From an uncultured Acidobacteriota bacterium (GTDB taxonomy: Bacteria > Acidobacteriota > UBA6911 > RPQK01), in assembly GCA_963744645.1 (NCBI GenBank), contig CAVUUN010000014.1:1308976-1372975 (forward strand): a stretch of 64,000 bases of DNA. Direction: 5' to 3'. How positions within the stretch are numbered: position 1 is the stretch's first letter; each line of letters begins with the position of its first letter. The notes under the pieces were generated by a model. That model worked only from the letters and a program-made list of their open reading frames with translations, was not told where the DNA came from and searched no databases. Both the position numbers and the translations under genes were made by a program. Positions 3,077-63,825 of this stretch are shown here, piece by piece.

Positions 3077-3221
3077 GTGAATATCCAATTCGCCGTCCCA
3101 GAGTGTACGCGCTTTTCGCACCGTATTTAAGGGCGGAGATGAAAGACGTTATCCACGAAGGACGAAGAGAGACAAACGCCATCCATACCACCCTGCCTTT
3201 ATTCGTGTCCGTTCGTCACAA

Positions 3222-3393
3222 CCCGCTTACTCCGCTAAAAAGCGCTGTGTGACGGCTCTGACAATGCTCGACAGGACGGTTGGCTTCTATGGCTTCTTAG
3301 AAGGATGGAGCGAGTGCAAGAACGGGGAACCGCGCCCGGTGCGAGGTATTGTCAGAGCCGCGCACGCAGCGCTTTTCAGCGGAGTAAGCGGGT
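3222..3393. repeat. Family A palindromic repeat element: inverted 42-bp arms CCCGCTTACTCCGCTAAAAAGCGCTGTGTGACGGCTCTGACA / TGTCAGAGCCGCGCACGCAGCGCTTTTCAGCGGAGTAAGCGGG flanking a spacer of about 90 bp.
   Basis: Near-perfect inverted repeat read directly from the sequence. Closely related copies are at 10670..10827, 41163..41319 and 63723..63825, with partial copies at 10941..10979 and 19875..19936. Confidence 0.85.
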
Positions 3394-3502
3394 GGTCACA
3401 GCCGGCATACCCCCGTGCCCTTGACTATTGCAGCGCGATACGTCTTTCGTCTGTATGGAATTCGGGTCTAGACTGTATGGATCAAACAGGAGGATGGTTC
3501 TC

Positions 3503-4612: not shown

Positions 4613-4630
4613 AGGTAGAAGGAATTTCGG

Positions 4631-4744
4631 GGACACGAAACTTATTTCGGGGACATAACACTTAATTCCCAACCCGCTACCGGTGCTCTCTCCGGTTGCA
4701 AGGGAATTAAGTCTTGTGTCCCCGAAATTTCCCGAATGATGGAG
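4631..4744. repeat. Family B hairpin element: TTTCGGGGACATAACACTTAATTCCC, a loop of about 31 nt, then GGGAATTAAGTCTTGTGTCCCCGAAAT. It lies immediately upstream of the M16 start codon.
   Basis: Inverted repeat read from the sequence. The same element is at 23521..23867 (3 tandem units), 38193..38457 (2 units) and 50081..50193. Confidence 0.85.
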
Positions 4745-4749
4745 GAGGC

Positions 4750-6120
4750 ATGAAACGATTCTTTGTTGCGGCGTTTCTCTTGTGCATGGGAACCCTCTGG
4801 GCGCAAAACGCTCCTGTCAAGGTTCCCTACACCCGGTTCACGCTCCCCAATGGACTCACTGTAATTCTGCATGAGGATCACTCGGTGCCGCTGGTGAGTG
4901 TGAACACTTACTACCATGTCGGATCAGGACGTGAGAAGCCCGGGCGGACTGGCTTCGCACATCTCTTCGAACACCTGATGTTCGAGGGGTCCGCTAACGT
5001 CCCGGAAGGCAAGTTCGACGAATGGCTCGAGGCGGCCGGCGGTGACAACAACGGCTCGACGAATTCGGATCGCACCAACTACTGGATGGATGTCCCGCGC
5101 AACTCAATCGAGCTCCCCCTGTTTCTTGAATCCGACCGCATGGCCTACCTCTTGAAGACTATGACGGCGGCCACCGTGAACGGACAGCGGGACGTCGTCA
5201 AGAACGAGAGACGCCAGTCGTACGAAAACCGCCCGTACGGCATGTCCTCGATTCTCCTCTCCGAAAACCTGTACCCCGCTGATCATCCGTACCACTGGCC
5301 GACGATCGGCTCCATGGAAGACCTGTCGGCGGCGAGCTTCGAAGATGTCGTCGAGTTCTTCAAGCGGTACTACGGGCCCAACAACGCCAGCCTCGTGATC
5401 GGCGGCGATATCGACCCGGCCAAGACCCGGGCGGTGGTGACGAAGTGGTTCTCGGAAATTCCCGCCGGACCGCCGGTCCCGGCGTTTTTCGCGACTCCCC
5501 CGCGGCTGGCCGAAGAGAAACGCCTGCTGCTGGAGGACAAGGTCCAGTTGCCCCGTGTGTATATGGCATGGCTGACACCCGCCGCCTTCGCTCCGGGTGA
5601 TGCCGAGCTGGATGTGCTGGCCAGCGTGCTTGCCTCCGGAAAGAACTCCCGGCTCTATAAGCGTCTCGTCTACGAACTTCAGATCGCGCAGGACGTGGCC
5701 GCTTATCAGGCGACCGGGCAGCTTGGTTCCAGCTTCCGAATTATCGCGACGGCCCGCGCCGGCCACACTCTGTCTGAGTTGGAAGCGATCATCCAGGAAG
5801 AAATCGATCGCCTCAAGAAAGAGCCGCCCTCTTCGCGGGAGGTGGAACGCGTCGTCAATCAGATCGAAGCCGATTTTCTGTCGCGGATGGAACGGGTCGG
5901 GGGCTTCGGGGGCAAGGCCGATCAACTCAATTACTACTATACGGTCACCGGAAATCCGGACTATTTCAACGAGGATCTCGGCCGCTACAAGGCGCTCGCG
6001 CCCGAAGACGTAGCGAACGCGGCCCAGACCTATCTGCCCAACAATGCCCGGGTGATTCTGAGCGTTGTTCCCACCGGCAGGAAGGAACTGAGCGCAATGT
6101 CGGGAAAGGAGCAGAAGTAA
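4750..6120 (+). CDS. M16 family zinc metallopeptidase (active, HLFEH motif), secreted.
   Basis: RBS GGAGGAGG, a signal peptide, HLFEH, a downstream E and an NERRQ motif, and full-length two-domain M16 architecture. Confidence 0.9.
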   Translation: MKRFFVAAFLLCMGTLWAQNAPVKVPYTRFTLPNGLTVILHEDHSVPLVSVNTYYHVGSGREKPGRTGFAHLFEHLMFEGSANVPEGKFDEWLEAAGGDNNGSTNSDRTNYWMDVPRNSIELPLFLESDRMAYLLKTMTAATVNGQRDVVKNERRQSYENRPYGMSSILLSENLYPADHPYHWPTIGSMEDLSAASFEDVVEFFKRYYGPNNASLVIGGDIDPAKTRAVVTKWFSEIPAGPPVPAFFATPPRLAEEKRLLLEDKVQLPRVYMAWLTPAAFAPGDAELDVLASVLASGKNSRLYKRLVYELQIAQDVAAYQATGQLGSSFRIIATARAGHTLSELEAIIQEEIDRLKKEPPSSREVERVVNQIEADFLSRMERVGGFGGKADQLNYYYTVTGNPDYFNEDLGRYKALAPEDVANAAQTYLPNNARVILSVVPTGRKELSAMSGKEQK

Positions 6121-6122
6121 CC

Positions 6123-7625
6123 ATGCTGACCCAATCGGAAATCAGACAAACCTCGGGCCGGAGACTCATGTCCTGCTCCTTGCTTCTTCTGGCGCTCATC
6201 GCTCTGACCGGCTCAATTTCAGCCCAGGCGTCGCCTCCGGACCGCACGCACCCTCCGTCCCCTGAATCGCCCGCCGCGCTGAAACTCCCGGCTATCGAGC
6301 ATCTGAAGCTCTCTAACGGGCTTCAGGTGATCCTGCTCGAAAAGCACGAGGTCCCGGTCGTTTACCTCAATCTGCTTGTTTCAGGGGGTCGCGCCCTTGA
6401 CCCACAGGGAAAGATCGGGCTTGCTCAGCTGACCGCCAGCATGATGACCGAGGGCGCAGGGAGCCGGGACGCGCTTCAACTAGCCGACGCGATTGATTTT
6501 CTGGGCGCGCAGATTTCTGCTTCGGCCATGGCTCACACTTTTTCCGTCAGTCTTTACGTGCCCGTCGCAAAACTGACCGAGGCCCTGCCTCTACTGTCGG
6601 ACGTGGCCCTCCATCCAACTTTCTCGAGCGAGGAACTGGAACGCAAACGCGCGCAACAACTCACGCGACTCTTGCAGGCCCGGGACAATCCACCGTCAGT
6701 CGCGTCCGTTCTTTTTGGGCACACTCTTTACGGGCTCTCGCATCCCTACGGCGCCTCGGTTTTTGGAGATGAAGCAACTATCCGGTCGTTCACAGTCGGC
6801 GACCTGAAAAAGCTGCACTCCTCGGCCTTTCAGCCGGAGAGCTCCACCTTGATCGTGGTCGGAGCGGTCAAACCGAACGATCTCGTGCCCAGTCTGGAAA
6901 AGGCTTTCGGTCAGTGGAAGCCGGGCGCAGCACCTTCCCCGCAAATGCCTGAGGCTAAGCAAGTCCCGGAACGGGCGATCTTCTTGGCCGACAAGCCTGG
7001 AGCGGCGCAGTCCGAGATCCGGGTTGGCCGGATAGGCGTCCCTCGCCTGACCGATGACTACTTCAACCTGGTGGTGCTGAACAGCATCCTGGGCGGCTCA
7101 TTCACGTCGCGTCTGAATAACAACCTGCGCGAGCAGCATGGTTACACCTACGGGGCAGGATCGCGGTTCGACTTCAATGTGCTCGCAGGTCCGTTCACTA
7201 TCGCTACCGCGGTGCAGACCGCGGTGACGGACAAGGCTCTGGCCGAAATCCTGAAGGAACTGGAAGCTATCCGCAAACCTATCCCCGCGGACGAACTGGA
7301 GCGAGGCAAGAACTACACGGCTCTGCGATTCCCTTCCCGTTTTCAGTCCGTTGGCGACATCGCCGACGAGCTCGAAGAGCTGGTGCTCTTCCGCCTGCCC
7401 GACAGTTATTTCAACGACTATGTCGGCCGGATTCTCGCGGTCACGCAATCCGACGTCCAGAAGGCTGCCGAGAAGTACCTCGACCCGGCGAAGGTCGCAA
7501 TCATCATCGTTGGAGATCGGGAAAAGATCGAAGCACCTTTGCGGGCACTGAACGTCGGTCCCATCAAACTTCTGACGATCGACGACGTGATGGGCAAGGC
7601 ACCGGAGCTGGCGAAGACGCAGTAG
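6123..7625 (+). CDS. M16 family peptidase, non-catalytic partner subunit (no HxxEH), secreted.
   Basis: Start codon overlaps or abuts the upstream M16 gene. It has a signal peptide and M16 N- and C-domains but lacks zinc ligands, which is the typical M16B heterodimer arrangement. Confidence 0.85.
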   Translation: MLTQSEIRQTSGRRLMSCSLLLLALIALTGSISAQASPPDRTHPPSPESPAALKLPAIEHLKLSNGLQVILLEKHEVPVVYLNLLVSGGRALDPQGKIGLAQLTASMMTEGAGSRDALQLADAIDFLGAQISASAMAHTFSVSLYVPVAKLTEALPLLSDVALHPTFSSEELERKRAQQLTRLLQARDNPPSVASVLFGHTLYGLSHPYGASVFGDEATIRSFTVGDLKKLHSSAFQPESSTLIVVGAVKPNDLVPSLEKAFGQWKPGAAPSPQMPEAKQVPERAIFLADKPGAAQSEIRVGRIGVPRLTDDYFNLVVLNSILGGSFTSRLNNNLREQHGYTYGAGSRFDFNVLAGPFTIATAVQTAVTDKALAEILKELEAIRKPIPADELERGKNYTALRFPSRFQSVGDIADELEELVLFRLPDSYFNDYVGRILAVTQSDVQKAAEKYLDPAKVAIIIVGDREKIEAPLRALNVGPIKLLTIDDVMGKAPELAKTQ

Positions 7626-7635
7626 AGGGCAGGAA

Positions 7636-7819
7636 ATGGACAGAGTGGACAAAGTGGACAGATAGGACAAATCGCAGCCACCAGGTCCTATTCGTCCACC
7701 TTGTCCACTCTGTCCACCTTGTCCACTCGGCTTTTCGGCTCAGTTGTCAGTTGTCAGTTGTCAGTCGTCAGTTGTCAGTCGTCAGTTGTCAGTTGTCAGT
7801 CGTCAGTTGTCAGTCGTCG
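7636..7819. terminator. Palindrome (TGGACAGAGTGGACAAAGTGGACAGATAGGAC ... GTCCTATTCGTCCACCTTGTCCACTCTGTCCA) followed by a tandem heptamer array (GTTGTCA/GTCGTCA, about 11 units), between convergent genes.
   Basis: Perfect stem of about 32 bp plus heptanucleotide tandem repeats read from the sequence, located between the M16 (+) end and the ada (-) end. Confidence 0.6.
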
Positions 7820-10328: not shown

Positions 10329-10669
10329 GTGTTACTCCTTGCGCGCTGCAGAGCGCCCGCACGAGCGCGGGCAGCGCATGTCTATTAGTGTATTTGTGCT
10401 AACGGTCGGCTTTATAACACACGCGTATAGCGGAGTAAACGAGCAAGTCGGAACGGGGGAGAGGGACAAAGGGGGTAAAGAGCAAGGGAGCGACGCGGTT
10501 CTTTCAAGGCCGCGCACAGCAGCGTTGCCTTTTCAGAGTCACACGCAGCGAGGGTGTTGAATAAGAGTCGGCGGGTTTTCAGTGGCGACGAATAGACACA
10601 AGGGCGTAAAGCCGCTGGCTCGACGGACCTCTGTGGAGCTATGGCAAGAGCCGGCCGAAGCCGAGTGGT

Positions 10670-10827
10670 GTCAGAGCCGCGCGCGAGCGCTTTCCAGCGT
10701 AGCAAGCGGGTTCAAACAGGGAGCGATCGCATGGTCCCCCTCCAGCGCCAGTGCCAACGGGCATGCGATCAGCCGGCTGTTCCAACCCGCTTGCTACGCT
10801 GAAAAGCGCTCGCGCGCGGCTCTGACA
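10670..10827. repeat. Family A palindromic repeat element (copy 2), plus a partial arm at 10941..10979.
   Basis: Arms GTCAGAGCCGCGCGCGAGCGCTTTCCAGCGTAGCAAGCGGG / CCCGCTTGCTACGCTGAAAAGCGCTCGCGCGCGGCTCTGACA. Confidence 0.85.
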
Positions 10828-11004
10828 CCGCTCGGTCGGCCGGTGTCCCCTGCCAGGCGCCTCAGAAAGACCACGCGTTTACATTTCTGTGACTTTCCGT
10901 AAGCTCGAGGGAATTCAAGACCTTATTCGACAGCCTCGCTGCGTGTGACAAAGGCACCGCTACGTGCGCGGCTCTGACAAGACAACCTTGCCCCCCTCGC
11001 TTCG

Positions 11005-20838: not shown

Positions 20839-21078
20839 GGGTTGCACGGGGGGCTGGGTTAGACGGTTCAGGGTTTGGGGGTTTGGGGGTTTGGAGGGTT
20901 CAGGGTTCAGGGTTCAGGGTTCGGGGTTCGGGGTTCGGGGTTGAGGAATTCAGTGTTCAGAAGTCAAGGAGTTCGGGGGTTCAGGTCTAACCGTCCAACC
21001 GTCTAACCGTCTAACCGTCTAACCGTCCAGCCCCCGAACTCAGAACTCAGAACTTCAGAACTCAGAACTTCGAGCTGT
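20838..21078. terminator. Imperfect 240-bp palindrome built from heptamer repeats (GGTTCAG/GGTTCGG ... CTAACCG ... GAACTCA), between convergent genes.
   Basis: Read from the sequence between the response regulator (+) end and the RRM gene (-) end. Confidence 0.55.
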
Positions 21079-21654: not shown

Positions 21655-23301
21655 CTACTCGGACCGTGGACTTTCGTCCCACGCCTCGACCACCCCGTCA
21701 GAGCCGTGCGGGAAGACCGACCCGGAATCCGAATCCGCCTTCCGGGAGCCCCAGCGAACGCGGAGTCCCGACCGCACGAGACTAAGGGTGGTCGGGAGAT
21801 TGCTGATCATTAGCTTCACCCAACTCCAGCCTGTCATCTGCGGGAAGTAGATGCCGCGAAACAGGAGCCGGGCGATGAAGAGGGTGAGCTGTTGCGCGAA
21901 CGGCTTTCCTTTGGACAGCATCCACTTTTGAGTCCGCCTGAAGGCGGCAGGCCCATAGGCAGCCGACCAGGAAGCGCGAATTTCGCTTTCGGCCTCTGTG
22001 CCCGAGAGATGTTTCGGAACGAATGCCGTCTGAAAAGCCCGAAAATCGAGCCAGTGCTCCGGCCTTGTCAAACGCCCTTCGCCTTTGAGTCGGTCATACA
22101 GGGGAGTAGCCGGGTAAGGCGTCAGCAACCCAAAGACCGGGAGTCCGGGCGGCCAATTGGCGAGCTCCGAGGAGATTCTCCCCGACATCCCCGGCCGATC
22201 GCCTTCCAGGCCCACGATGAAGGACGTTATCGCGTAGACATTGTGACGGGCCAGAAGGTCCAGAGTCTGCTGGTAGTCGACCGGCTTATTAAACTGCTTG
22301 CCGGCAGCCTTCAGGCTGTCCGGCTCCATCGATTCCAACCCGGCAAAAATCCACCGCCCGCCGCTTTCCGCGATCAACTCGACCAGTTCTTCGTCCCGCA
22401 GCAGGTTGATGCTGATCTGGCCCACCCAGGGGAGACAAACATCGTTCGCGATCATGTCTCTCAACAGCGACTTGATCCGTTTGCGATTGATCGCCAGATT
22501 GTCGTCGATGAAGAAAACCATTACCAGCGCCTTGTCACGGGCAGCCAGGGATTTCAAAAGGAGCAGTTCCTCGATTACGCTCTCATTCGATCGAAAGCGT
22601 ATCTCATCCCCGAAGAAGCCGGTGACCGTGCAAAACTCACAGCCGTAGGGGCAGCCGCGACCCGATTCCACGGGAATCACATAGGCCTTTTCAAACGGTA
22701 CTGAAATAGTCTTGAGAAGCTTCCGCACGGGTGCCGGGACGCAACGCATCAGGTTGAAAAGCTGGAGGTCGATGTCGTCCCAACGGATGATCGGGTAGGA
22801 AGAGAGGGCGGGCTTGACGTCATGCCCTTCCACCTGCGGAATGCGGTAAATGCTGTCAAGGTGACCGGATGCCGCGTCCTCGACCACCTTGGGCCAAATG
22901 TTGTCCGCTTCGCCGACGACGACCGCGTCGGCGACCTGGGGATGGCCGGAAAGCCCGAGGGGTTCCAGAGGCAGGGCGGTTACGTGCGGGCCGCCGAAGA
23001 CGACCGGAATGCCAGTTTGCTTCCGGATAGCGGCCGCAACCCGATAGGCCTTCTGAGCCATCCGGGTCATGAATCCCATGCCGACAAGGTCGACCTTGTT
23101 CGCGACGACGAAGTCGACGATTTCCTGCTCCCCCCAGTGCACCACGTTTCCATCCACGATCGTTACGTCATGCGGAGCAGGCGTCAGGTTACGCAGCAGG
23201 AAAGGCCAAAGTTGCGGAAGGAAATTATTGGTTATCTGATTATCAGGAACATACAGGAGAATGTGCAAATCTCTTACCCCTAAGAAGCGCCAAAAACGCA
23301 C
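21655..23301 (-). CDS. B12-binding radical SAM protein (paralog 3).
   Basis: B12-binding N-terminal domain and a SGRGCPYGCEFC radical SAM motif. Its architecture is the same as paralog 2 (FFIDDNL / FFTDDNF blocks). Confidence 0.8.
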   Translation of the reverse strand: MRFWRFLGVRDLHILLYVPDNQITNNFLPQLWPFLLRNLTPAPHDVTIVDGNVVHWGEQEIVDFVVANKVDLVGMGFMTRMAQKAYRVAAAIRKQTGIPVVFGGPHVTALPLEPLGLSGHPQVADAVVVGEADNIWPKVVEDAASGHLDSIYRIPQVEGHDVKPALSSYPIIRWDDIDLQLFNLMRCVPAPVRKLLKTISVPFEKAYVIPVESGRGCPYGCEFCTVTGFFGDEIRFRSNESVIEELLLLKSLAARDKALVMVFFIDDNLAINRKRIKSLLRDMIANDVCLPWVGQISINLLRDEELVELIAESGGRWIFAGLESMEPDSLKAAGKQFNKPVDYQQTLDLLARHNVYAITSFIVGLEGDRPGMSGRISSELANWPPGLPVFGLLTPYPATPLYDRLKGEGRLTRPEHWLDFRAFQTAFVPKHLSGTEAESEIRASWSAAYGPAAFRRTQKWMLSKGKPFAQQLTLFIARLLFRGIYFPQMTGWSWVKLMISNLPTTLSLVRSGLRVRWGSRKADSDSGSVFPHGSDGVVEAWDESPRSE

Positions 23302-23520
23302 GACTAACCAGCAGTGCGCGCCCAGAGGCCCGGAAGGCGTGTATTCCGAACCTTAAGAACGCCCGGAACTCCTGCCTCTTCTTCTCTCCGCAAAGCCCCT
23401 TAGGGATCACGTGGGAACAGCACGAGGAACTGTTCTGGGTGTCACGCGAAGAATACTGCAAAGAGACGGTTCTAGGCAAGCTGTACGACGAGCAGCCCGG
23501 CTAACAGGCTGACAGGAGGG

Positions 23521-23867
23521 GAATTTCGGGGACATGATACTCAATTCCCCCGCGCCTCCGGGGGGTGACAGTCGGCAAGGAATTGAGTTTCGTTTCCCCA
23601 AATTCCGCAAATTCGCGGTGAGACACCGAGAACGGAAGGGAGTCGCGTCGGAGTTTCGGGGACATGATACTCAATTCCCCCGCGCCTCCGGGCGGTGACA
23701 GTCGGCGAGGAATTGAGTTTCGTGTCCCCGAAATCCGCAAATTCGCGCTGTGAGACACCGAGAACGCAAGGGAGTCGCGTCGGAGTTTCGGGAGACAAAT
23801 ACTCAATTCCCTCGCACCCTTCGTGCACTCGCAGACCCAAAGGAATTGAGTTTACGTCCTCGAAACT
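23521..23867. repeat. Family B hairpin element in three tandem units (period about 122-133 bp), 220 bp upstream of radical SAM paralog 3.
   Basis: Units start at 23521, 23643 and 23776. Each contains TTTCGGGGACATGATACTCAATTCCC ... GGAATTGAGTTTCGT(G/T)TCCCCGAAAT. Confidence 0.85.
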
Positions 23868-25273
23868 ACCTTCCGGCGCACGGTCAAGTGGAAGAGCAGC
23901 CCGCCGATAAGAACCGTCACCAGGGCCAGGATCGACTCGACCGGACGCCCGCGGAAATTCCAGACCATCGCCCAGACCGAAACGGATAGAAACAGGAGCG
24001 GTGTGATCGGATAACCCCACGTTCGGAACGGGCGTGGCATGTCCGGCCGTCGAATCCGCAGGATGATGACGCAACTCACCCCAAGACTCGCGAAAAGCGT
24101 CAGTGTGAAACCAATGTACTGCTGGATCTGGTCGACTCTCCCGGAGAGAATCATCCCGGTCGTGATGAAACCCTGGAGAAGAAGCGCAGCCGCCGGAGCC
24201 CCGGTCGACGCGCTGGTCGTCCCGAAGATCCGCAACGGAGGGAAATCCCTGCCAAGCGCGTAGGAGACTCTCGGTCCGGCGATCGTCATTGCCGAGGCGG
24301 AAGCCAGCAGCGAGATCGAGAGGACCAGCGTGACAACACTTGCGCCCGCTTCCCCGAACAGCGCTCTTGAGGAAATCAGCCCCACCTGGGCCTTGTTGGC
24401 CAGCGCATTGACGTCGGCGCCATAGAAGTAAGCTGCGTTGAGCCCCAGATAGAGAATCACGACGAGCGATGTGCCCAGAGTCAGGGACCGCGGCAGGTTC
24501 TTCTTCGGTTCCCGGATCTCGCCGGCAACGTAGGCAGCGGCGTTCCACCCGGAATAGCAGAACATGACGAAGATCAGGCAATTGGCGAACGCCCCCAACT
24601 TGTCGGCCTGGCCGAGCGACCGGTACGAGTCCGAGACGCTCGTGAAATGCGATAGTTGACCCTTTCCAATGAGCGCGGCGGCAACGATAATCCCAATGAT
24701 GCCGCCGACCTTCAGCAGAGTGATCCAGTCATTGAATCGAATGCCGCCCCGGACGCCGCGCAAATGAACCGCTACGAGAATCCAGGCCAATCCGACGGCG
24801 ATCCAGTCATTGACGTCGATCACCCCAAACAGCACAGGGGAGGGGCTCAGGAACGGGAAGAAATGGGTCAGGTACAGGACCAGGCTCTTGAGCGCCGATG
24901 CCACCGGCGCCGCAAAGCCGGCGAACAGCGAGACGAACGCGCTCATGAAGCCGAAGGACATTCCATAGGTTTCCCGGAGGTAGACGTACTCTCCGCCCGC
25001 CCGCGGCATTGCGGCTCCGAGCTCCGCGTAACAGAGCGCGCCGCACAGGGCGAGGATTCCACCGATGATCCATACCAGGAAGATGTACCCCGGATGCCCG
25101 AGCGCTCCCGCCTGAAAGCCGGTCGACGTGAAGATGCCGGCGCCGATGATGTTCGCGATGACGAGGGCAATGGCCGACTTAAGTCCTATTCCGCGAACCA
25201 GGCCCTGCGAGTCGGCGACGTCGGCTTCGGCCCTTTGCCCGGCATCCCGCGCGCCGGGCTTCCCATCTGGCAT
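23852..25273 (-). CDS. APC-superfamily amino-acid permease.
   Basis: About 12 predicted TM helices and an APC/AAT family signature region. The start ATG is at 25273 (MPDGKPGA), not the upstream 25426. Confidence 0.85.
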   Translation of the reverse strand: MPDGKPGARDAGQRAEADVADSQGLVRGIGLKSAIALVIANIIGAGIFTSTGFQAGALGHPGYIFLVWIIGGILALCGALCYAELGAAMPRAGGEYVYLRETYGMSFGFMSAFVSLFAGFAAPVASALKSLVLYLTHFFPFLSPSPVLFGVIDVNDWIAVGLAWILVAVHLRGVRGGIRFNDWITLLKVGGIIGIIVAAALIGKGQLSHFTSVSDSYRSLGQADKLGAFANCLIFVMFCYSGWNAAAYVAGEIREPKKNLPRSLTLGTSLVVILYLGLNAAYFYGADVNALANKAQVGLISSRALFGEAGASVVTLVLSISLLASASAMTIAGPRVSYALGRDFPPLRIFGTTSASTGAPAAALLLQGFITTGMILSGRVDQIQQYIGFTLTLFASLGVSCVIILRIRRPDMPRPFRTWGYPITPLLFLSVSVWAMVWNFRGRPVESILALVTVLIGGLLFHLTVRRKVVSRT

Positions 25274-25340
25274 CCCCGCTCCTCCTTGATCGTCTTGACA
25301 ACCGGCCCCCTTTTTTATATAAATTCGACCGGAATAGTAA

Positions 25341-26666
<1,326 letters not shown>

Positions 26667-28444: not shown

Positions 28445-28553
28445 TAGGATAGGACCTATAGGACCGATAGGACCGATAGGATCGGGGACCGGCTTTCGAG
28501 TCTTCTCCCATATGTCCTATTCGTCCTATACGTCCTATTCCTATTCCTGTTGC
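28443..28553. terminator. Palindrome of GATAGGAC-type repeats (ATAGGATAGGACCTATAGGACCGATAGGACCGATAGGATCGG ... TATGTCCTATTCGTCCTATACGTCCTATTCCTATTCCT).
   Basis: Read from the sequence between metW and the CBS gene. Confidence 0.55.
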
Positions 28554-31080: not shown

Positions 31081-31555
31081 GTGGGAGTTCGGAGTTCTGA
31101 GTTCGGAGTTCTGAGTTCTGAGAAGGTGTGAAAAAATCGGTTTTGCTTGCGAAGACTCGGTTTTCGACCCCAAGGGGGTCGCGTAGCAAAGCCCAGGGTT
31201 GGCCGCGTTGTCTGCGGCCTACCCTGGGTCGGGGACCCCAGAGTTCAACCCTGAAAGGGTTGCGTATCATGCACATACGCAACCCTTTCAGGGTTGAGGC
31301 GTTTGCTACTGCCACCCAGGGTAGGCCGCAGACAACGCGGCCAACCCTGGGCTTTGCTGCGCGACCCCCTTGGGGTCGAAAACCCGTCTTTCGATTTCTT
31401 CACACCTTCTGAGTCTGGGTTCTGAGTTCGGAGTTCTGAGTTCTGGGTTTGGGTGGGTTTGCGGCCAGGCAACTTACGCTTCCTAACCTTGACTGAGAAC
31501 ACTGAACGAATGGAACCCAACTCAGAACTCAGAACTCAGAACTTAGAACTGCGCT
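31081..31555. repeat. Complex repeat: GAGTTCT/GAGTTCG heptamer arrays flanking a near-perfect palindrome of about 240 bp that contains a nested inner hairpin.
   Basis: Outer arms of about 70 bp (GGTTTTCGACCCCAAGGGGGTCGCGTAGCAAAGCCCAGGGTTGGCCGCGTTGTCTGCGGCCTACCCTGGGT) with 1 mismatch. Inner hairpin AACCCTGAAAGGGTTGCGTAT ... ATACGCAACCCTTTCAGGGTT. Inverted CAGAACT arrays lie at 31510..31550. Confidence 0.8.
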
Positions 31556-31646: not shown

Positions 31647-32708
31647 TTGGGGTGTCATCACATGAAACGAACTGAGGAAGGCCGGCACCGATTCCTGGCA
31701 GTCGAAATCCCGAGTGTCCTGCTCACCGTATTCTGCTTCTTCGCCTGCATTGTTGCGGCCCTTGCCCAGGTGCGAAGTGAGCCGCCTCGGCCCCGCTTCG
31801 GTGATTCAACGTTTTCGATCGAGGGGTCGGTCGTGGATGCGAAGGGTCGACCGGTTCAGCACGCCCGCCTGGTCCTGAATGTATTCGGCACCGAGGGGCA
31901 ACGCACCGATTTCTCGGACACAGACGGTCGGTTTATCTTCCGGAGACTTCCTGAAGGCAGCTACACCATGGACGTTTCCGCAGGCGGCTTCCAGTCAACC
32001 AAAGAGGAGATCCAGCTGGTCAGCGTCTCTCGCACGATCCGCATTGTCCTTACGCCTGGTGAGCGGTCCGAAGAGCGCCACCAGGGAGGGACCGAGAGTG
32101 TTTCGGCCGCGTCGTTACGGGTACCCAAGGAAGCCGAGAAGCTCTACAGGAAGGCCCTTCGTTCTCACACGGAAAAGCGCTATGACGAAGCCTTGAAGGA
32201 GTTCGACGAGGCGCTGAAGATAGCTCCGGACTTCGCGCGCGCCTACGCCGGCCGGGGCATTACACTGCTTCAAATGCAAAATCGGGCGGAAGCCAGAATC
32301 GCCTTCGAGAAGGCGGTTCGGCTCGATCCGGAATCCTTCGATGCTCAAGTGGGGCTGGGACTTGTCCTCAACGACTTGCGCGAGTTCCAAGCTTCGACCG
32401 AACACCTGTTGAAGGCACGGTCACTGAACAGCGCCGGGTGGCAGGTGCATTACGAGCTCGGGCGCGCGTACTTCGCCCTGGCAGACTACCCGGAAGCCGA
32501 AGCCAGCCTGAGGACCGCCCGGGCTTCCTCGCCCCATTATCCCGGCCTCTACCTGTTGCTTTCCAATCTTTATCTGAAGACCAACAGGCCGGCCGACGCG
32601 GTGAACGAGCTGCAGGGTTTCCTTAAGATGTTTCCTGACGGGCCAATGGCCGAACAGGTCCAGAAGAGAATCAAGTTGATCGGAGAGCGTGAGGCAACTG
32701 CGCACTGA
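31647..32708 (+). CDS. Secreted protein with a carboxypeptidase-regulatory-like (transthyretin-like) domain plus TPR repeats.
   Basis: N-terminal TM/signal segment, a CarbopepD_reg-like beta-sandwich (GSVVDAKGRPVQHARLVL...DGRFIFRRLPEGSY) and at least 4 TPR-like repeats. The true start may be 31662. Confidence 0.75.
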   Translation: MGCHHMKRTEEGRHRFLAVEIPSVLLTVFCFFACIVAALAQVRSEPPRPRFGDSTFSIEGSVVDAKGRPVQHARLVLNVFGTEGQRTDFSDTDGRFIFRRLPEGSYTMDVSAGGFQSTKEEIQLVSVSRTIRIVLTPGERSEERHQGGTESVSAASLRVPKEAEKLYRKALRSHTEKRYDEALKEFDEALKIAPDFARAYAGRGITLLQMQNRAEARIAFEKAVRLDPESFDAQVGLGLVLNDLREFQASTEHLLKARSLNSAGWQVHYELGRAYFALADYPEAEASLRTARASSPHYPGLYLLLSNLYLKTNRPADAVNELQGFLKMFPDGPMAEQVQKRIKLIGEREATAH

Positions 32709-32862
32709 CGACTGCGAACTGCTCACTACCCGCTGCGCACTGCGCACTACCCGGCTGACCGGCTGACCATTTGATCAGCCAGTGGGCGGTGGGCAGTTCG
32801 CAGTGCGCAGTGCGCAGTTCGTCAGTGCGCAGTGCGCAGCGGGCAGTTGTCAGTTGCTTTTG
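32709..32862. terminator. Palindrome of GCGCACT/CTGACCG heptamer repeats between convergent genes.
   Basis: ACTGCGCACTGCGCACTACCCGGCTGACCGGCTGACC ... GGTGGGCAGTTCGCAGTGCGCAGTGCGCAGT. Confidence 0.55.
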
Positions 32863-35842: not shown

Positions 35843-38221
35843 ATGACCGATCAGGAACCGGGCAGACCCACTCGCATCCTTCCTGCTCTTCCGATCGATC
35901 CTCGCCTCCCGGAGATCGTGTCCGTCCTACGGAAATATCGTCGTGCGGTGCTCGTTGCCCCGCCGGGCGCAGGCAAGACGACTCGTGTGGCGCCCGCCCT
36001 GATCGAAGAAGGACCCGTCATCCTCCTCCAGCCGCGCCGGGTGGCGGCCCGGTCAATAGCCGCGCGGATTGCGTCAGAACAGGGCTGGGAGATCGGTCGC
36101 GAGGTTGGCTGGCAAGTGCGATTTGAAAGACGGTTCGGACGCGAAACTCGACTACTCGTTTGCACCGAGGGCATCCTCACGAATCGTCTCCAGGCGGATC
36201 CTCTCCTGACCGGTTTCCGGACGGCGATCCTCGACGAGTTCCACGAGCGGAGTGTGCACGCCGATGTTGCACTCGCGCTCATGCGGGAAGCCGTGCGCGC
36301 CCGCGACGACCTGCAGCTTCTGGTGATGTCTGCCACCCTTGATGCCCGGGCGGTGTCCGATTACCTCGACGGCTGCCCGATGATCGAAGTCGAGGGACGA
36401 GCTCACCCGGTCGAGATCGGGTACGCTCCTCACACGTTTCCACAGTCAGCCATCACCGAGAGACTTGATCAGCCCGGAGGCCACATCCTTTGTTTTCTGC
36501 CCGGGGCGGGAGAGATCTCCAGGCTTGGCGAAGACCTGCGTGCCCGTGCCCGGCCCGGGGTGGCGATTCTTCCTCTTCATGGGACGCTCGAGGCGGCGGC
36601 GCAGGACCGGGCGCTGGCACCTTCTCGTGAACGGAAGGTCATCCTTGCCACGAATATCGCCGAAACTTCCTTGACCGTCGAAGGCGTCACCGATGTGATC
36701 GATACCGGCCTCCACAAGGTCCTTCGCTATGATTCACGCCGGGGAATCGACAGTCTGGAGCTTGAACGCATTCCGGCTGATTCAGCCGAACAGCGTGCCG
36801 GACGAGCTGGTAGGCTCGGACCCGGCCGCGCGCTCAGACTCTGGGATCCTCGGGAACGGCTCCGGCCGCATCGTGAAGCCGACATCCGGCGTATCGACCT
36901 GGCGGCGCCTTTCCTGGATGTGATTGCCTGGGGGGGAGACCCGCTCTCCCTTGACTGGTACGAGGCTCCGGCAAGGGAACGAGCAGAGTCCGCACTGGAA
37001 CTGCTCGATCGACTTGGCCTGGTCCGGGACGGGCGGCTGACCCCGCTCGGGGACATCGCGCACCGCCTGCCCCTCCATCCCAGGCTCGCCTGCATCCTCG
37101 TAAGTGCCGGAGGATCCCGGCGGGCCGCCGCAGTATGTGCCCTGCTCTCCGAGCGAGGACAATCCCACCCCGCTTTGCACGCGACCGATTCGGACATCCT
37201 GACCCTTGCAGATGAAATCGACATCGCGCCACCTCCTGTGCGCAACGTCGCGCTCGAAATCGAGCGGGTGGGCCGGTCGCTTCTCGGGCGCGGCGTCAAG
37301 ACCGACCCGTCAGAGGAAAGCCTGCTGAGAAGCATTCTGGCGGGTTTCCCTGACCGCGTGGCCCAGCGCCGGGAGCCCCGCTCTGCCCGCCTGCTCCTGG
37401 CGAGCGGGCATGGAGCGAGGCTGACCGCGGACAGCGGCGTCTGGGACGGGGAATACCTGGTCGCCCTTGACGTGATCGGAAGCGAAGCACGGGGCGTCAG
37501 CGAGGCGCTGGTTCGCCAGGCCAGCCGGATCGAGAAGCAATGGCTCCGGCCGACGTGCGTGGAAGTGAGGCACTGGTTCGATCCCGAAACCCGGGCAGTT
37601 AAGGCGGTCGAGCAAGTTCGTTACATGGCGCTCCTTCTGGCCGAACGTCCTGTCCCTCCCCATCCCGACGAATCCATCGACTTGCTCCTTGGAGCGTGGG
37701 CAAAAGAGCCGTTGGACGAGGCGTCCCGCACACTCGTTGCCCGGGCCCGAATGGCCGGCGTTTCGATTGACATGGAGGCGGCCAGGCGGGCCGCATGCGC
37801 GGGACGCGTGTCCCTTCCGCGGCTCGACCTGCATCTCAGTCTCAGTCACGCAGAGCGCCAGCTCCTGGATCGCCTCTGCCCCGAGTCGGTGCGGGTGCCG
37901 AGCGGCCGATCGATTCGACTCGAGTACGGGGATGACGGGATCGTCCGCCTCTCGGTTAAGCTTCAGGAACTGTTCGGGCTGGAGGAGGGGCCGCGTGTGG
38001 GACGCAACCAGGAACCGGTCCTGATCCATTTGCTCGCTCCCAACGGCCGGCCGGTCCAAACAACCACCGACCTGCGCAGTTTCTGGCAACGAACTTACCC
38101 GGAAGTGCGCAGAGAGTTGCGCGGACGGTATCCCAAACACCCTTGGCCGGAAGACCCGGCAGGCGCCGAGCCAACCGCCCGAGTGAAGAAGCGAGTTTCG
38201 GGGAGAGTTTCGGGGACATAA
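35843..38221 (+). CDS. hrpB: ATP-dependent RNA helicase HrpB (DEAH-box).
   Basis: Walker A APPGAGKTT, DEFHER, SATL, a helicase C domain, and the HA2 and HrpB C-terminal regions. The ORF-track entry 34619..38221 is extended upstream by antisense read-through of the preceding gene. Confidence 0.9.
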   Translation: MTDQEPGRPTRILPALPIDPRLPEIVSVLRKYRRAVLVAPPGAGKTTRVAPALIEEGPVILLQPRRVAARSIAARIASEQGWEIGREVGWQVRFERRFGRETRLLVCTEGILTNRLQADPLLTGFRTAILDEFHERSVHADVALALMREAVRARDDLQLLVMSATLDARAVSDYLDGCPMIEVEGRAHPVEIGYAPHTFPQSAITERLDQPGGHILCFLPGAGEISRLGEDLRARARPGVAILPLHGTLEAAAQDRALAPSRERKVILATNIAETSLTVEGVTDVIDTGLHKVLRYDSRRGIDSLELERIPADSAEQRAGRAGRLGPGRALRLWDPRERLRPHREADIRRIDLAAPFLDVIAWGGDPLSLDWYEAPARERAESALELLDRLGLVRDGRLTPLGDIAHRLPLHPRLACILVSAGGSRRAAAVCALLSERGQSHPALHATDSDILTLADEIDIAPPPVRNVALEIERVGRSLLGRGVKTDPSEESLLRSILAGFPDRVAQRREPRSARLLLASGHGARLTADSGVWDGEYLVALDVIGSEARGVSEALVRQASRIEKQWLRPTCVEVRHWFDPETRAVKAVEQVRYMALLLAERPVPPHPDESIDLLLGAWAKEPLDEASRTLVARARMAGVSIDMEAARRAACAGRVSLPRLDLHLSLSHAERQLLDRLCPESVRVPSGRSIRLEYGDDGIVRLSVKLQELFGLEEGPRVGRNQEPVLIHLLAPNGRPVQTTTDLRSFWQRTYPEVRRELRGRYPKHPWPEDPAGAEPTARVKKRVSGRVSGT

Positions 38222-38457
38222 ACTTAATTCCCGTGAACCTGCGGCAGCAGGTGAACGCTTTGGGAATTAAGTATTGTGTCCCCGAAACTCTCCCGAAACC
38301 CCCGAAAGTCGGGAAGCTTCGGTCGCCGGTGGTATATTGCTGCAGCCCTGCAAGGGAATGTCGGGGGAATGTCGGGGACACAAAACTTAATTCCTTTGCA
38401 AGCTCCTAACTTGATGGAAACGGTTTGGGAATTAAGTATTATGTCCCCGAGATTCCC
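38193..38457. repeat. Family B hairpin element in two tandem units, immediately upstream of the 38488 start codon.
   Basis: GAGTTTCGGGGACATAAACTTAATTCCC ... GGGAATTAAGTATTGTGTCCCCGAAAC, and a second unit ending GGAATTAAGTATTATGTCCCCGAGATTCCCC. Confidence 0.85.
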
Positions 38458-38487
38458 CTGAATCTCAGCAACAACGGAGGTCATTTG

Positions 38488-39494: not shown

Positions 39495-39590
39495 GACGGG
39501 CCCGCGGATTTACGCGGATCTGCGCGGATAATCGCGGATTAAGGCAGCGTCCTCTTTGTTCGCTGCCTTAATCCGCGATTATCCGCGCAG
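39495..39590. terminator. Near-perfect 42-bp-stem palindrome of CGCGGAT repeats; bidirectional terminator between convergent genes.
   Basis: CCCGCGGATCTGCGCGGATAATCGCGGATTAAGGCAGCG, a loop, then its inverse. It is followed by T-runs on both strands. Confidence 0.75.
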
Positions 39591-39607
39591 ATCCGCGGGC
39601 CGCTTTC

Positions 39608-40992: not shown

Positions 40993-41162
40993 GCATAGCA
41001 TTCCACAAGAACCGCCGAGACGGGGAGATGATACAGTCTCCGGGCTCCGGGCACAATCTCTGGATCGACCCGGGTGGATGCGTCCTTCCGAGTGCGCAAG
41101 CTTGCTCGCGCTTTATACGGATCTTGGGATTCCGGTGGGCATGCACCTGCTTTCGGTTCGAA

Positions 41163-41319
41163 CCCGCTTGCTTCGCGGAAAGACGCTCGCGCGCGGCTCT
41201 GATGGGACTCGGCGAACACCGCGCAACCGCTCAGGCTCTATCGTAATACGAGTCATAGCAGGCGACACCGAGTCGTGTGTCAGAGCCGCGCGCGAGTGCT
41301 TTCCAGCGAAGCAAGCGGG
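41163..41319. repeat. Family A palindromic repeat element (copy 4).
   Basis: Arms CCCGCTTGCTTCGCGGAAAGACGCTCGCGCGCGGCTCTGA / GTCAGAGCCGCGCGCGAGTGCTTTCCAGCGAAGCAAGCGGG. Confidence 0.85.
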
Positions 41320-41529
41320 TTCGAACCGAAAGCAAAATTGCATACCCTAAGGTGTCTAACATGCATATAAGCAGAGCAAGGTTGCGCGCTCCAAGGCTCG
41401 CTTCGCTCGCAAACTTTCCTTGGGGCACTTTTCCGCTCACTTTTTCAACACCCCCTTGGGGGACGATTCTCGCGGTCCCTCCTGACAACTGACTTCGACT
41501 GCTGTATAAGAGAATCTTCAGGAGCGAAC

Positions 41530-47320: not shown

Positions 47321-47330
47321 GAAAGAAAAC

Positions 47331-47450
47331 CGGCCCGCGGATCTACGCGGATCTACGCGGATAATCGCGGATAAAGGCAGCCGACGTTTCATCGGCTGCC
47401 TTTATCCGCGATTATCCGCGTAGATCCGCGTAGATCCGCGGGCCGGTTCC
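47331..47450. terminator. Perfect stem palindrome of about 50 bp made of CGCGGAT heptamers; bidirectional terminator.
   Basis: CCGGCCCGCGGATCTACGCGGATCTACGCGGATAATCGCGGATAAAGGCAGCCGA, a loop, then its inverse. It lies between convergent glpC and DUF1080 genes and is the same heptamer family as 39495..39590. Confidence 0.75.
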
Positions 47451-48295: not shown

Positions 48296-48424
48296 CACTG
48301 ACAACTGACAACTGCCCGACTGGCAACCCTGACCGAAAAGCGCCCCCGTGCTCAGCCGTCGTGGGCAGTGCGCGGTCAGTGGTGGTCAGTCGCGTCAGTC
48401 GTCAGTGGTCAGTCGTCAGTCAAC
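48296..48424. terminator. Palindromic heptamer array (CTGACAA ... GTCAGTG/GTCGTCA) downstream of pgm.
   Basis: CACTGACAACTGACAACTGCCCGACTGG ... CAGTGGTCAGTCGTCAGTCA. Confidence 0.5.
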
Positions 48425-50080: not shown

Positions 50081-50193
50081 ATTTCGGGGACTCGACGATT
50101 TCGGGGACATAATACTTAATTCCCACCCCGTAACCACCGAACTCCGCGTGAGCAAAGGAATTAAGTATTATGTCCCCGAAATGCCCGAAATTG
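50081..50193. repeat. Family B hairpin element immediately upstream of the pgm start codon.
   Basis: ATTTCGGGGACATAATACTTAATTCCC, a loop, then GGAATTAAGTATTATGTCCCCGAAAT. Confidence 0.85.
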
Positions 50194-50238
50194 TGCCCGC
50201 TGCCTTCTGCCCGCCGCCCGCTGATTTCTGCCCGCTCT

Positions 50239-51627
50239 CTAGCTGCCCCCTGCCGGCTGCCCGCTGCCCGCTGATTTGGGGGCCAGCAGGCGAGCCAGCA
50301 GGAAGGCCATCTCCATCGCCTGTTCGTAGTTCAAGCGCGGGTCGACGTGAGTGCGGTAATCGCGCTGGAGATCCGCCTCGGTGATGCCGCTCGCCCCGCC
50401 CAGGCACTCAGTCACGTTCTCGCCGGTCAGCTCGAAGTGGACTCCGCCCAGGTGCGCTCCACACTCCTTCAGGATGAGACAGGACTGCTCGAGCTCGGAA
50501 ATGATCCGCTCAAAACGCCTGGTCTTCACGCCCCCCGAGGTCATCTCCGTATTCCCGTGCATCGGGTCGCAGCACCAGAGGACCTTCTTTCCGGCTCGCT
50601 CCACTGTCTCGACGAGGGGCGGCAGGCGGTCACCCACCTTGTCCGCTCCCATCCGGTGGATGAAGGTCAGACGGCCCGGCTCGTTGGTCGGGTTCAGAAC
50701 CGAACACAGGCAGATTGCCTCTTCGGGCGTGACGCCCGGCCCGATCTTGACGCCTATGGGGTTCGCGATTCCGCGGAAATACTCGACGTGAGCGCCGTCG
50801 ACATTTCGCGTCCGTTCGCCGATCCAGGGGAAATGAGTGGAGAGGTTGTACCAGCCCGGCCGGCGGGGCACCTGTCGTGTCTGGGCCTGTTCGTAGTAGA
50901 GGTGGAGTCCTTCGTGACTGGTAAAGAAGTCGACCCGGTTGATGTCGGAGGCATTGTGTCCGGTGAGCGTTTCCATGAAACGAAGCGACTCGCCGATCGA
51001 CTGCACAGTGCGCATGTACTCATTGGCCAGCGGGGATTTCGACACAAATCCGAGATCCCAATACTCGGGATGGTGAAGGTCCGCGAAACCGCCGTCGACC
51101 AGGGCGCGAATGAAATTTATCGTCAGGGCTGCCCGTCCCTGGGCCTTCACGAGCAGCTCAGGATTTGGCTCGCGGTCCTCGGGCCGGAATGCCGGCCGAT
51201 TCACCATGTCACCCCGGTAGCAAGGCAGGGTCACGCCGCCCCGGGTCTCCGTATCCGCCGATCGAGGCTTGGCGTACTGACCGGCAAAGCGTCCGACGCG
51301 GATCACCCTTCTTCTTCCTCCCTGGACCAGAACCAGGCTCATCTGGAGGAGGATCTTCAGCTTACGAGTAATCGCGCTCGGCTCGCAGTCTTCAAAACTC
51401 TCGGAGCAATCCCCTCCCTGGAGCATGAAGCGCTCACCTGCGGCCGCTTCCGCCAGCTGTGACTTCAGCTTCTCGATCTCCCAACTGGTGACAAGCGGAG
51501 GGAGTTTGGCTAACTGGAGAAGCGCGGTCTGCAGCGCAGCCTGATCCTTATATTTGGGTTGTTGCGTCGCCGGTCGACTCTGCCAGGATGTCGGTGTCCA
51601 GGTGGAACCTGGTTGGATTGGGTCCAT
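50239..51627 (-). CDS. 3-deoxy-7-phosphoheptulonate (DAHP) synthase, class II.
   Basis: AroAII family ([14 protein letters not shown], cysteine motif). An alternative start is at 51672. The last ~12 residues ([13 protein letters not shown]) are read out of a CTGCCCG heptamer array (50200..50283) and may not be real. Confidence 0.85.
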
Positions 51628-52024: not shown

Positions 52025-52392
52025 ATCCTGACCGGCTCACCAGCTGACCGGCTGACCAGATCGTTGCGCACTGCGCGCTTCGCACTGCGCACTTCAACTG
52101 GGCTAAGGGACGACCAGTCGGCGAGGTCAGAAGGGTGGGGGAGGTATGTAGTACCGGCTTCAGCCGGTCGAACCGTCGGCAATCTCGATTGTCCGAGCGC
52201 CGAACTCGGGCACGAGCTGGCTTGCGGCGGTACTACGAACCTCGTCAGTCCGTCAGCTCGTCAGCCTCTCAGCCGGTCAGCCGGTCAGCCGGTTAGTGGT
52301 CAGTCGTCAGTAGTTTAGTCGTCAGTGGTCAGCCGGTCAGCTCGGTTAGCCGGTCAGCTCGTCAGCCGGTCAGCCGGTCAGTCGTCAGTGTT
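52025..52392. terminator. Two palindromic heptamer-repeat blocks (CTGACCGG / GCGCACT / CGTCAGT families) between convergent genes.
   Basis: 52025..52100 shares the CTGACCGGCTGACC and GCGCACTGCGCAC modules with 32709..32862. 52236..52392 contains GTCAGCC/GTCAGTC arrays. Confidence 0.5.
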
Positions 52393-63676: not shown

Positions 63677-63722
63677 CGGTTTGCCGAGTAGTTTTCAGAA
63701 CCGCGCACGCAGCGCAGTCCGG

Positions 63723-63825
63723 TCAGAGCCGCGCACGCAGCGCTGTCCAGCGGAGTAAGCGGGTTCCCCCTGCCCAGCGAAGCCGCTTGCTCCGCTGGAA
63801 AGCGCTGCGTGCGCGGCTCTGAAAG
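63723..63825. repeat. Family A palindromic repeat element (copy 5, short loop).
   Basis: GTCAGAGCCGCGCACGCAGCGCTGTCCAGCGGAGTAAGCGGG ... CCGCTTGCTCCGCTGGAAAGCGCTGCGTGCGCGGCTCTGA. Confidence 0.85.

Follow-up and report, generated by a model that had tools for sequence, protein, structure and literature searches.

TIRYT genes encode TIR-associated tyrosine transposases, which are RAYT-like enzymes of the HUH/Y1 type. Many of the inverted repeats that flank these genes share the motif GGGGWSAS, and the units of gene and repeats have been named TIRtrons (Di Nocera et al. 2013, PMC3733652). Some of these TIRs make up moderately abundant families that occur as dimers or clusters, and one group of TIRYTs is specific to Acidobacteria (PMC3733652). 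TIRYTs are equated with subclass 2.1 of the Y1 transposases (TnpA-Y1), which ranks second in size among the subclasses, occurs in 14.9% of strains, and is distinguished by a helix-turn-helix extension at the C terminus (Quentin et al. 2018, PMC6006769). Our search of the literature found no report of TIRYT activity on its own repeats.

The locus examined here is a tandem array of hairpins located at positions 23520-23870 of a 64-kb stretch of DNA (hereafter the window). Its hairpins are members of a dispersed family, denoted family B, whose arm has the consensus TTTCGGGGACA-N4-ACTYAATTCC, wherein an outer block (TTTCGGGGACA) is separated by four free positions from an inner block (ACTYAATTCC). 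Family B resembles the TIR families of TIRtrons in placing GGGG[AT][CG]A[CG] at the outer end of the arm, and the two agree in polarity and in the register of a second sequence block. Furthermore, both occur as intergenic head-to-head dimers and clusters, both exhibit nested partial copies of the outer motif, and both have Acidobacteria among their hosts. However, the family-B arm is longer (25-29 nt, including the inner block ACTYAATTCC), and no TIRYT gene is bracketed by exact arms in the window or in loci L002-L074. The exact arm is also present in at least eight phyla as judged by record titles, the acidobacterial copies carry two fixed non-Watson-Crick positions, and we found no description in the TIR literature of tandem arrays that combine hairpin and spacer.

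Other known systems share only some of these characteristics. Like the REP/BIME and REPIN-RAYT systems of Escherichia coli and Pseudomonas, family B comprises abundant intergenic palindromes that often lie right after stop codons, whose inverted pairs form a larger hairpin (as in REPINs), whose clusters alternate in orientation with conserved linkers (as in BIMEs), and whose insertion leaves no target duplication. The RAYT partner is likewise a Y1 transposase that matches the same NCBIfam model as the TIRYT-type protein discussed below. In contrast to REPs, family B has no GTAG or CGTC tag beside its arms, and its single arm is not a convincing palindrome. Moreover, REPs are usually species-specific, whereas nearly identical family-B arms are found in different phyla. 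Correia elements and other MITEs (Neisseria, ERIC, RUP) are similar in size (about 50-150 bp), in their inverted ends of about 26 nt, in their intergenic and co-transcribed positions, and in the long duplex RNA they yield. Correia-type elements carry target-site duplications (TA for Correia), which are not seen among 78 family-B elements. Finally, IS200/IS605 elements also rely on a Y1 HUH transposase that acts on folded single-stranded ends without target duplication, but these ends are subterminal imperfect hairpins rather than mutual inverted repeats, and the TIRYT-type Y1 proteins examined score 22-25 bits against an IS200-model cut-off of 55. We consider it likely that the hairpins of the array are copies of a selfish repeat, in which each arm is one TIR of the class that flanks TIRYT genes, and that the three head-to-head dimers form a BIME-like cluster enlarged by a local 130-bp duplication.

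Anatomy of the hairpin array

Tandem Repeats Finder reports a tandem array at 23520-23865 with a period of 130, 2.6 copies, 85% matches, and a score of 401. A repeat search within the window aligns 23520-23626 with 23650-23756 (107 nt, 92% identity). The preliminary description of this DNA, whose quoted arm and spacer strings can all be located in the array sequence, had proposed three tandem units of about 125 bp that differ by small substitutions. The repeat is indeed real, but its period is 130, and the region at 23520-23870 contains three hairpins of about 87 nt (arms of 27-29 nt, loops of about 30 nt) and two spacer copies of 43-45 nt rather than three full units. In addition, the loop of H3 is unrelated to those of H1 and H2, and its arms carry indels and mismatches. 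The array and its surroundings are arranged as follows, with the strain differences referring to a sister contig described below.

21655..23301, minus strand: B12-binding radical SAM gene, downstream of the array; start uncertain (GTG at 23301, TTG at 23268, or a gene-caller start at about 23157)
23302..23519, no strand: unique stretch from the array to the radical SAM start; identical in the sister strain except for 1 nt
23520..23606, no strand: hairpin H1 (left arm 23520-23548, loop 23549-23578, right arm 23579-23606)
23607..23649, no strand: spacer copy 1 (43 nt, GCAAATTCGCGGTGAGACACCGAGAACGGAAGGGAGTCGCGTC)
23650..23736, no strand: hairpin H2, the best-preserved copy (arms GGAGTTTCGGGGACATGATACTCAATTCC and GGAATTGAGTTTCGTGTCCCCGAAATCC)
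23737..23781, no strand: spacer copy 2 (45 nt, with a 2-nt insertion relative to copy 1)
23782..23870, no strand: hairpin H3, an older or diverged copy
23852..25426, minus strand: amino acid permease gene, upstream of the array; the start called in the sister contig corresponds to 25273

The arms of H1 read GGAATTTCGGGGACATGATACTCAATTCC and GGAATTGAGTTTCGTTTCCCCAAATTCC, and its right arm is slightly decayed in the window strain (GTTTCCCCAAAT where the sister strain retains the consensus GTGTCCCCGAAAT). H2 opens with GGAG, which also precedes H3, and thereafter reads like H1, a chimeric start that unequal exchange between left arms would produce. The spacer sequence is confined to the array locus when the 64-kb window is searched.

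All three hairpins fold far better than shuffled sequence as DNA (-16 to -33 kcal/mol), and their RNA folds reach -31 to -57 kcal/mol with z values of -3.7 to -7.8, the strongest being that of H2 (-56.6 kcal/mol, z -7.8). RNA from every unit forms a duplex of 25-30 bp on either strand, although H1 and H2 are less stable as RNA of the transcribed minus strand. The two spacers exhibit no significant RNA structure relative to shuffles (z -0.2 and -1.3).

Family B and the repeats of TIRYT genes

When up to three mismatches are allowed, the arm motif occurs 12 times in the window, distributed over five sites, versus no occurrences in 100 shuffles. The copies outside the array are listed below.

4621..4737, no strand: copy with an extra partial left arm, between esterase and M16 peptidase genes
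38192..38300, no strand: copy flanked on either side by repeats of part of the outer motif; directly follows a helicase gene
38354..38462, no strand: copy in the orientation opposite to that at 38192..38300, upstream of a DUF6807 gene
50081..50191, no strand: copy whose arms form a perfect palindrome; lies between genes for DAHP synthase and phosphoglucomutase

An exact-arm scan of a 596-Gb collection, in which each species is represented by one genome, yielded at least 73 stretches, whereas by our own arithmetic about one match would be expected by chance in the entire collection. The record titles among the matches listed cover at least eight phyla and include Acidobacteriota, Alpha- and Gammaproteobacteria, Desulfobacterota, Chloroflexota, Actinomycetota, Riflebacteria, WOR-3, and a Eubacteriales MAG. 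Several matches reside on isolate or megabase-scale contigs, some are single arms, and the titles of MAGs are only as reliable as their binning. One Acidobacteriota MAG (CAYQYP01) carries dozens of family-B sites. The complete elements among the matches listed are mostly 80-85 nt with loops of 30-33 nt, and some proteobacterial elements are as short as 52-59 nt with loops of 2-9 nt. These matches also include 78 head-to-head dimers. Clusters with two to four members are frequent, and neighbors within them mostly alternate in orientation. Roughly 30% of family-B flanks hold nested partial copies of the outer motif, versus a background of 7.6%.

Family B is dispersed and intergenic, without gene specificity. 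According to a rough gene caller, the genes on either side of it point the same way at 19 sites, converge at 11, and diverge at 6, and statistics on the orientation and context of the sites exhibit no clear bias. No family-B match was found among the 2.9 million viral contigs of IMG/VR, and a plasmid search returned a single partial arm on a Pseudomonas plasmid, which is uninformative. A full-text literature search with the arm sequence returned unrelated primers only.

The family-B hairpin is maintained. Among 74 elements, 88.5% of cells pair versus 82.1% in shuffles, and the covariation score of 0.190 (versus 0.083) was reached by none of 500 shuffles; these elements were chosen by a match to both arms, such that constant columns are uninformative while the free columns and flanks are unconstrained. 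Several pair types are observed at the four free positions and at two positions just outside the arm. Two non-Watson-Crick positions are kept in acidobacterial copies, as T.G in 48 and T.T in 45 of the 74 elements, which renders the element asymmetric and orientable. A single family-B arm forms a self-hairpin no better than shuffles do, and folding therefore gives no support to the notion of a small REP-like stem-loop (GGAATT/AATTCC) in every arm. Some TIRYT repeats do self-fold (-10.3 kcal/mol, z -4.8).

The connection between family B and TIRYT genes is made by motif, register, and polarity. The right arm of H2, when read as its reverse complement (GGGGACAC), fits GGGG[AT][CG]A[CG] exactly; the left arms of H1 and H2, a form that we call the type 1 arm (GGGGACAT), match at seven of eight positions and miss the last; and proteobacterial copies read GGGGACAG. 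Among the 73 loci fetched around family-B arms, L038 has a Y1 gene, which is RAYT-like and lies between inverted copies of GGGGACGGGTTCACAT, a repeat that differs from family B. The product of this gene matches Pfam Y1_Tnp and the NCBIfam model NF047646, 'REP-associated tyrosine transposase' (84.5 bits, cut-off 80), and it is a member of a very large protein family. In metagenome loci of this family with enough flank, the strict motif is present in sense orientation within 160 nt upstream of the Y1 gene in 54 of 74 (opposite-orientation control, 4), and in antisense orientation just past the stop codon in 37 of 73 (control, 5). A second block, AC[GT][GT], three positions past the octamer, is present in 24 of 93 gene-flanking repeats, versus 1.5 expected. 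Family B, which reads GGGGACA[CTG]-NNN-ACT[TC], has the register and polarity of these gene-flanking repeats, with GGGG outermost. We relied on these counts of motif, register, and orientation since the family-B arm, when used as a position-weight model on TIRYT flanks, was too strict.

Architectural features point the same way. Contigs with Y1 genes also hold hairpin dimers of the gene's own flanking repeat, such as that at 489-564 of L144, which has a loop of about 30 nt. Nested partial copies of the outer motif also occur in repeats that flank Y1 genes, as at 3880-3945 of L171, where three such copies (GATCAAGGGG...) precede the full repeat. One TIRYT protein (P0360) is present with its flanking repeats on 23 contigs, and its upstream neighbors differ at the places shown (among them L165-L170). 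Relatives of a second Y1 query (L126) carry ATCAAGGGGTCAGAGTACTTGAAA, and one contig (L168) bears a family-B-like arm alongside a TIRYT gene that has a different repeat. The best reading of these sequence comparisons is that family B belongs to the known class of TIRYT-type TIRs, although the likeness in sequence is confined to about 12 conserved positions in short repeats, to which polarity, register, and architecture are added.

Neither the window nor the family-B loci scanned yielded the cognate transposase. The window contains no Y1 gene, and no Y1 gene bracketed by exact family-B arms was encountered there or in loci L002-L074. The relatives of L038 and L126, which were pursued as a route to the cognate enzyme, have flanking repeats that are related to family B but different. 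Clustering of the proteins encoded near family-B arms revealed no recurrent neighbor. As a separate observation, L038 carries at 1444-1478 a perfect family-B arm that lies in frame within an ORF, ATPase-like on reading (...SRISGTPYLIPE...), and a group II intron maturase-like fragment and the TIRYT gene are located about 1 kb downstream of this arm.

The formation of a BIME-like cluster at this locus can be envisioned by borrowing from the REP/RAYT and IS200/IS605 systems. For REP/RAYT, the copying of single-stranded hairpins by a Y1 enzyme has been shown in vitro. By analogy, a Y1 transposase acting in trans would copy family-B dimers, in the form of single-stranded hairpins, to new chromosomal positions, and no target-site duplication would result. 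At the array locus, an older element (H3) and a younger one would have come to lie 45 nt apart in the same orientation, and unequal recombination or replication slippage between left arms 130 nt apart would then have duplicated hairpin and spacer to give the order H1-spacer-H2-spacer-H3, after which exchange between copies would have continued. The proposal of a local duplication is based on the 92% identity of the two units, the chimeric start of H2, and the recurrence of arrays elsewhere, as another Acidobacteriota genome has tandem arrays with unrelated spacers (L071, period 107, 3.3 copies; L053, period 106, 2.0 copies). The cluster fills the gap after the permease stop codon, and any effect on mRNA, such as stabilization of a 3' end, a site for a double-strand RNase, or a partial block to read-through, would be a by-product. 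The complementary flanks, the conserved T.G and T.T positions, and the nested partial ends fall outside this account and are left unexplained by it.

A bolder version, which we regard as possible but rather doubtful, is that family B represents one ultra-conserved lineage of TIRYT-type hairpin dimers spread over at least eight phyla, without a transposase linked in cis. Among the matches listed, arms are identical across phyla at all 20 specified positions, as recovered by an exact-match search. If this proposal is correct, then either the cognate Y1 enzyme moves between phyla with an almost frozen DNA specificity, or the hairpin-enzyme pair persists owing to a benefit for the host, an argument already made for REPIN-RAYT. 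The T.G and T.T positions, complementary flanks, and nested ends would then be the marks of an undescribed, strand-specific form of single-stranded copying.

Transcription context, target sites, and copy number

The permease and radical SAM genes are both encoded by the minus strand, and the stop codon of the permease gene (23852-23854) and its last codons lie inside the right arm of H3. From the array to the radical SAM start the distance is about 220-250 nt or more. The array, placed by the preliminary description directly upstream of the radical SAM gene, is equally 'immediately downstream of the permease gene', given the position of the permease stop codon. A promoter for the radical SAM gene, if any, would have to fall in 23302-23519 or inside the array, and promoter-like matches around the array are uninformative. 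Just before H1, the plus strand at 23412-23504 encodes WEQHEELFWVSREEYCKETVLGKLYDEQPG followed by a stop; this frame has no upstream start codon and may be a remnant of the 3' end of some gene.

Might the hairpins, once transcribed with the permease gene, have been recruited as RNA elements, to protect the 3' end of the permease transcript, to serve as an RNase III-type site, or to damp read-through into the radical SAM gene? Roles of this sort have been reported for REP/BIME and Correia elements, and they are compatible with a selfish origin, to which they would add a function. The array begins within the last permease codons and sits between two co-directional genes, each of its units can form the RNA duplex noted above, and family copies typically abut stop codons, with 30 of 36 sites having co-directional or convergent neighbors. 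One proteobacterial copy (L062) even has a T run after its hairpin. However, between 23100 and 24000 there is no terminator-like site, and none of the three hairpins is followed by a T run, whichever strand is read. Even within one cluster, elements differ in how they are oriented relative to transcription, the minus-strand form of H1 and H2, which is the one transcribed, is the less stable, and the divergent share (6 of 36) is not clearly below expectation. We view such co-option as rather unlikely, although the array may incidentally affect the transcript of the permease or the radical SAM gene.

Far less plausible is the suggestion, made in the preliminary description, that tandem amplification of the structure modulates the radical SAM gene. 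In this scenario, a dedicated cis-regulatory structure (an attenuator, a riboswitch-like element, or a protein-binding platform) would have been amplified to tune a B12-radical SAM gene, and a strongly structured array 220-250 nt upstream of that gene on its coding strand is what speaks for such an interpretation. The comparison with orthologous loci that had been called for points elsewhere. The enzyme has thousands of relatives in Acidobacteriota, but no hairpin arm (up to four mismatches) is present in six contigs (L075-L080) that carry three relatives with 73-75% identity, and the upstream genes of these contigs differ from those at the array locus. In addition, the other two radical SAM genes in the window have no family-B hairpin, whereas the same element is found beside unrelated genes and, in many phyla, in unrelated contexts. 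Searches of the window and 17 family-B loci with Rfam 15, using gathering and E-value thresholds, gave zero matches at gathering score, with mir-680 (19 bits against a threshold of 104) as the sole sub-threshold match. Together with the lack of a terminator-like site, these findings leave the array unsupported as a dedicated control element of the radical SAM gene, and we judge that role very unlikely.

A classical MITE, derived by deletion from an IS and moved by a DDE transposase that recognizes 25-nt terminal inverted repeats, would account for terminal inverted repeats around a variable interior, for a size of 52-90 nt, and for multiple intergenic copies. However, direct matches between flanks, as expected of a target-site duplication, occur in only 0-6 of 78 elements, which is the chance level for k = 2-5 at each of five offsets (0-4). 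It is inverted matches that are in excess, with 54 of 78 elements matching over 2 nt (4.9 expected) and 18 of 78 over 4 nt (0.3 expected). Furthermore, no recurrent protein family is found near the elements, and the arms match the repeats of Y1 genes rather than those of DDE genes. Nor is there a transposase between distant arms: the only candidate for an autonomous element is L050, a Gammaproteobacteria MAG locus in which family-B-like arms at 4660-4790 and 6290-6320 lie 1.6 kb apart around two ORFs that, on reading, are unlike transposases. A MITE origin is thus highly improbable, and the L050 segment may instead be repeat-bracketed cargo. We also considered dif/Xer sites, parS, sigma-54 promoters, and the ends of Tn3, Tn7, and Mu, and there was no real sequence agreement.

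Turning to copy number, a sister contig (ERZ25039545:contig_42689, 508 kb, 99.6% identity across 21 kb) repeats the order H1-spacer-H2-spacer-H3, and a short-read contig (L082) matches H3 and spacer 2 without differences until it ends exactly where the repeated hairpin begins. Collapse to a single copy on re-assembly, which had been named as the outcome that would overturn the repeat, is not observed, because the second assembly, from this 99.6%-identical strain, also has three hairpins. Given the shared layout and a short-read contig that breaks at the repeat boundary, the copy number of the array is not an artefact. The least probable of all the alternatives, namely that assembly inflated one hairpin to three copies, could draw on the facts that strain differences are concentrated in the array and that some variants are apparently swapped between copies, both of which mis-phasing during polishing could yield, but the layout recurs in two independent assemblies, the copies differ by substitutions, a spacer indel, and a wholly different third loop, and L082 ends at the repeat boundary as expected for a true repeat. 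Mis-phasing at assembly could contribute to the swapped variants but would not create the layout.

The earlier proposal that the array is a recombination hotspot gains support from the same comparison. Although the 348-nt array makes up 3% of the aligned length, it accounts for 14 of the 45 differences that separate the window from the sister contig, a rate of 4.0% per nt versus 0.29% outside (14-fold; binomial p = 5e-11). Some variants are exchanged between H1 and H2 across the two strains, and both the chimeric start of H2 and the similar arrays in L071 and L053 agree with this view.

Other repeats in the window and the significance of the array

The window is rich in other repeats. A second, unrelated hairpin family is located at 3215-3406, 10660-10835, 41148-41334, and 63698-63822, with arms of 40-59 nt (TCAGAGCCGCGCGCGAGCGCTTTCCAGCGTAGCAAGCGGGTTC and its complement) that contain GTAG and with loops of 12-111 nt. 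At 47328-47448 there is a 57-nt inverted repeat, 100% complementary, that is composed of 10-nt units (CGCGGATNTA), and a related copy is found 7.8 kb away at 39496-39597. Intergenic tandem arrays with units of 7-9 nt occur at 7637-7818, 20865-21071, 28448-28548, 31084-31550, 32696-32854, 48297-48421, 50194-50309, and 52028-52381, and several of these face complementary arrays, an arrangement that would allow long hairpins to form. In one of the arrays, a 7-nt unit at 20878-20884 distinguishes the window from the sister strain. The 390-nt segment at 31123-31512, which includes 71-nt arms (31159-31229 and 31314-31384) that are 99% complementary, gives way to 83 nt in the sister contig (99.6% identical), which makes it an insertion/deletion polymorphism that involves a further palindromic element.

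For the radical SAM locus, the array matters little: it is not to be taken for a regulatory device, and the DNA between the permease and radical SAM genes is best treated as unstable and hard to assemble. For repeat biology, family B offers a concrete and well-populated example of the poorly studied class of TIRYT repeats, which is of modest interest. The most notable by-product of the analysis is the existence of exact matches to one arm sequence in very distant bacteria. Features that should be useful for biochemistry include the hairpin dimers, the alternating clusters, the amplification of hairpin plus spacer, the lack of target duplication, and the fixed mismatches.
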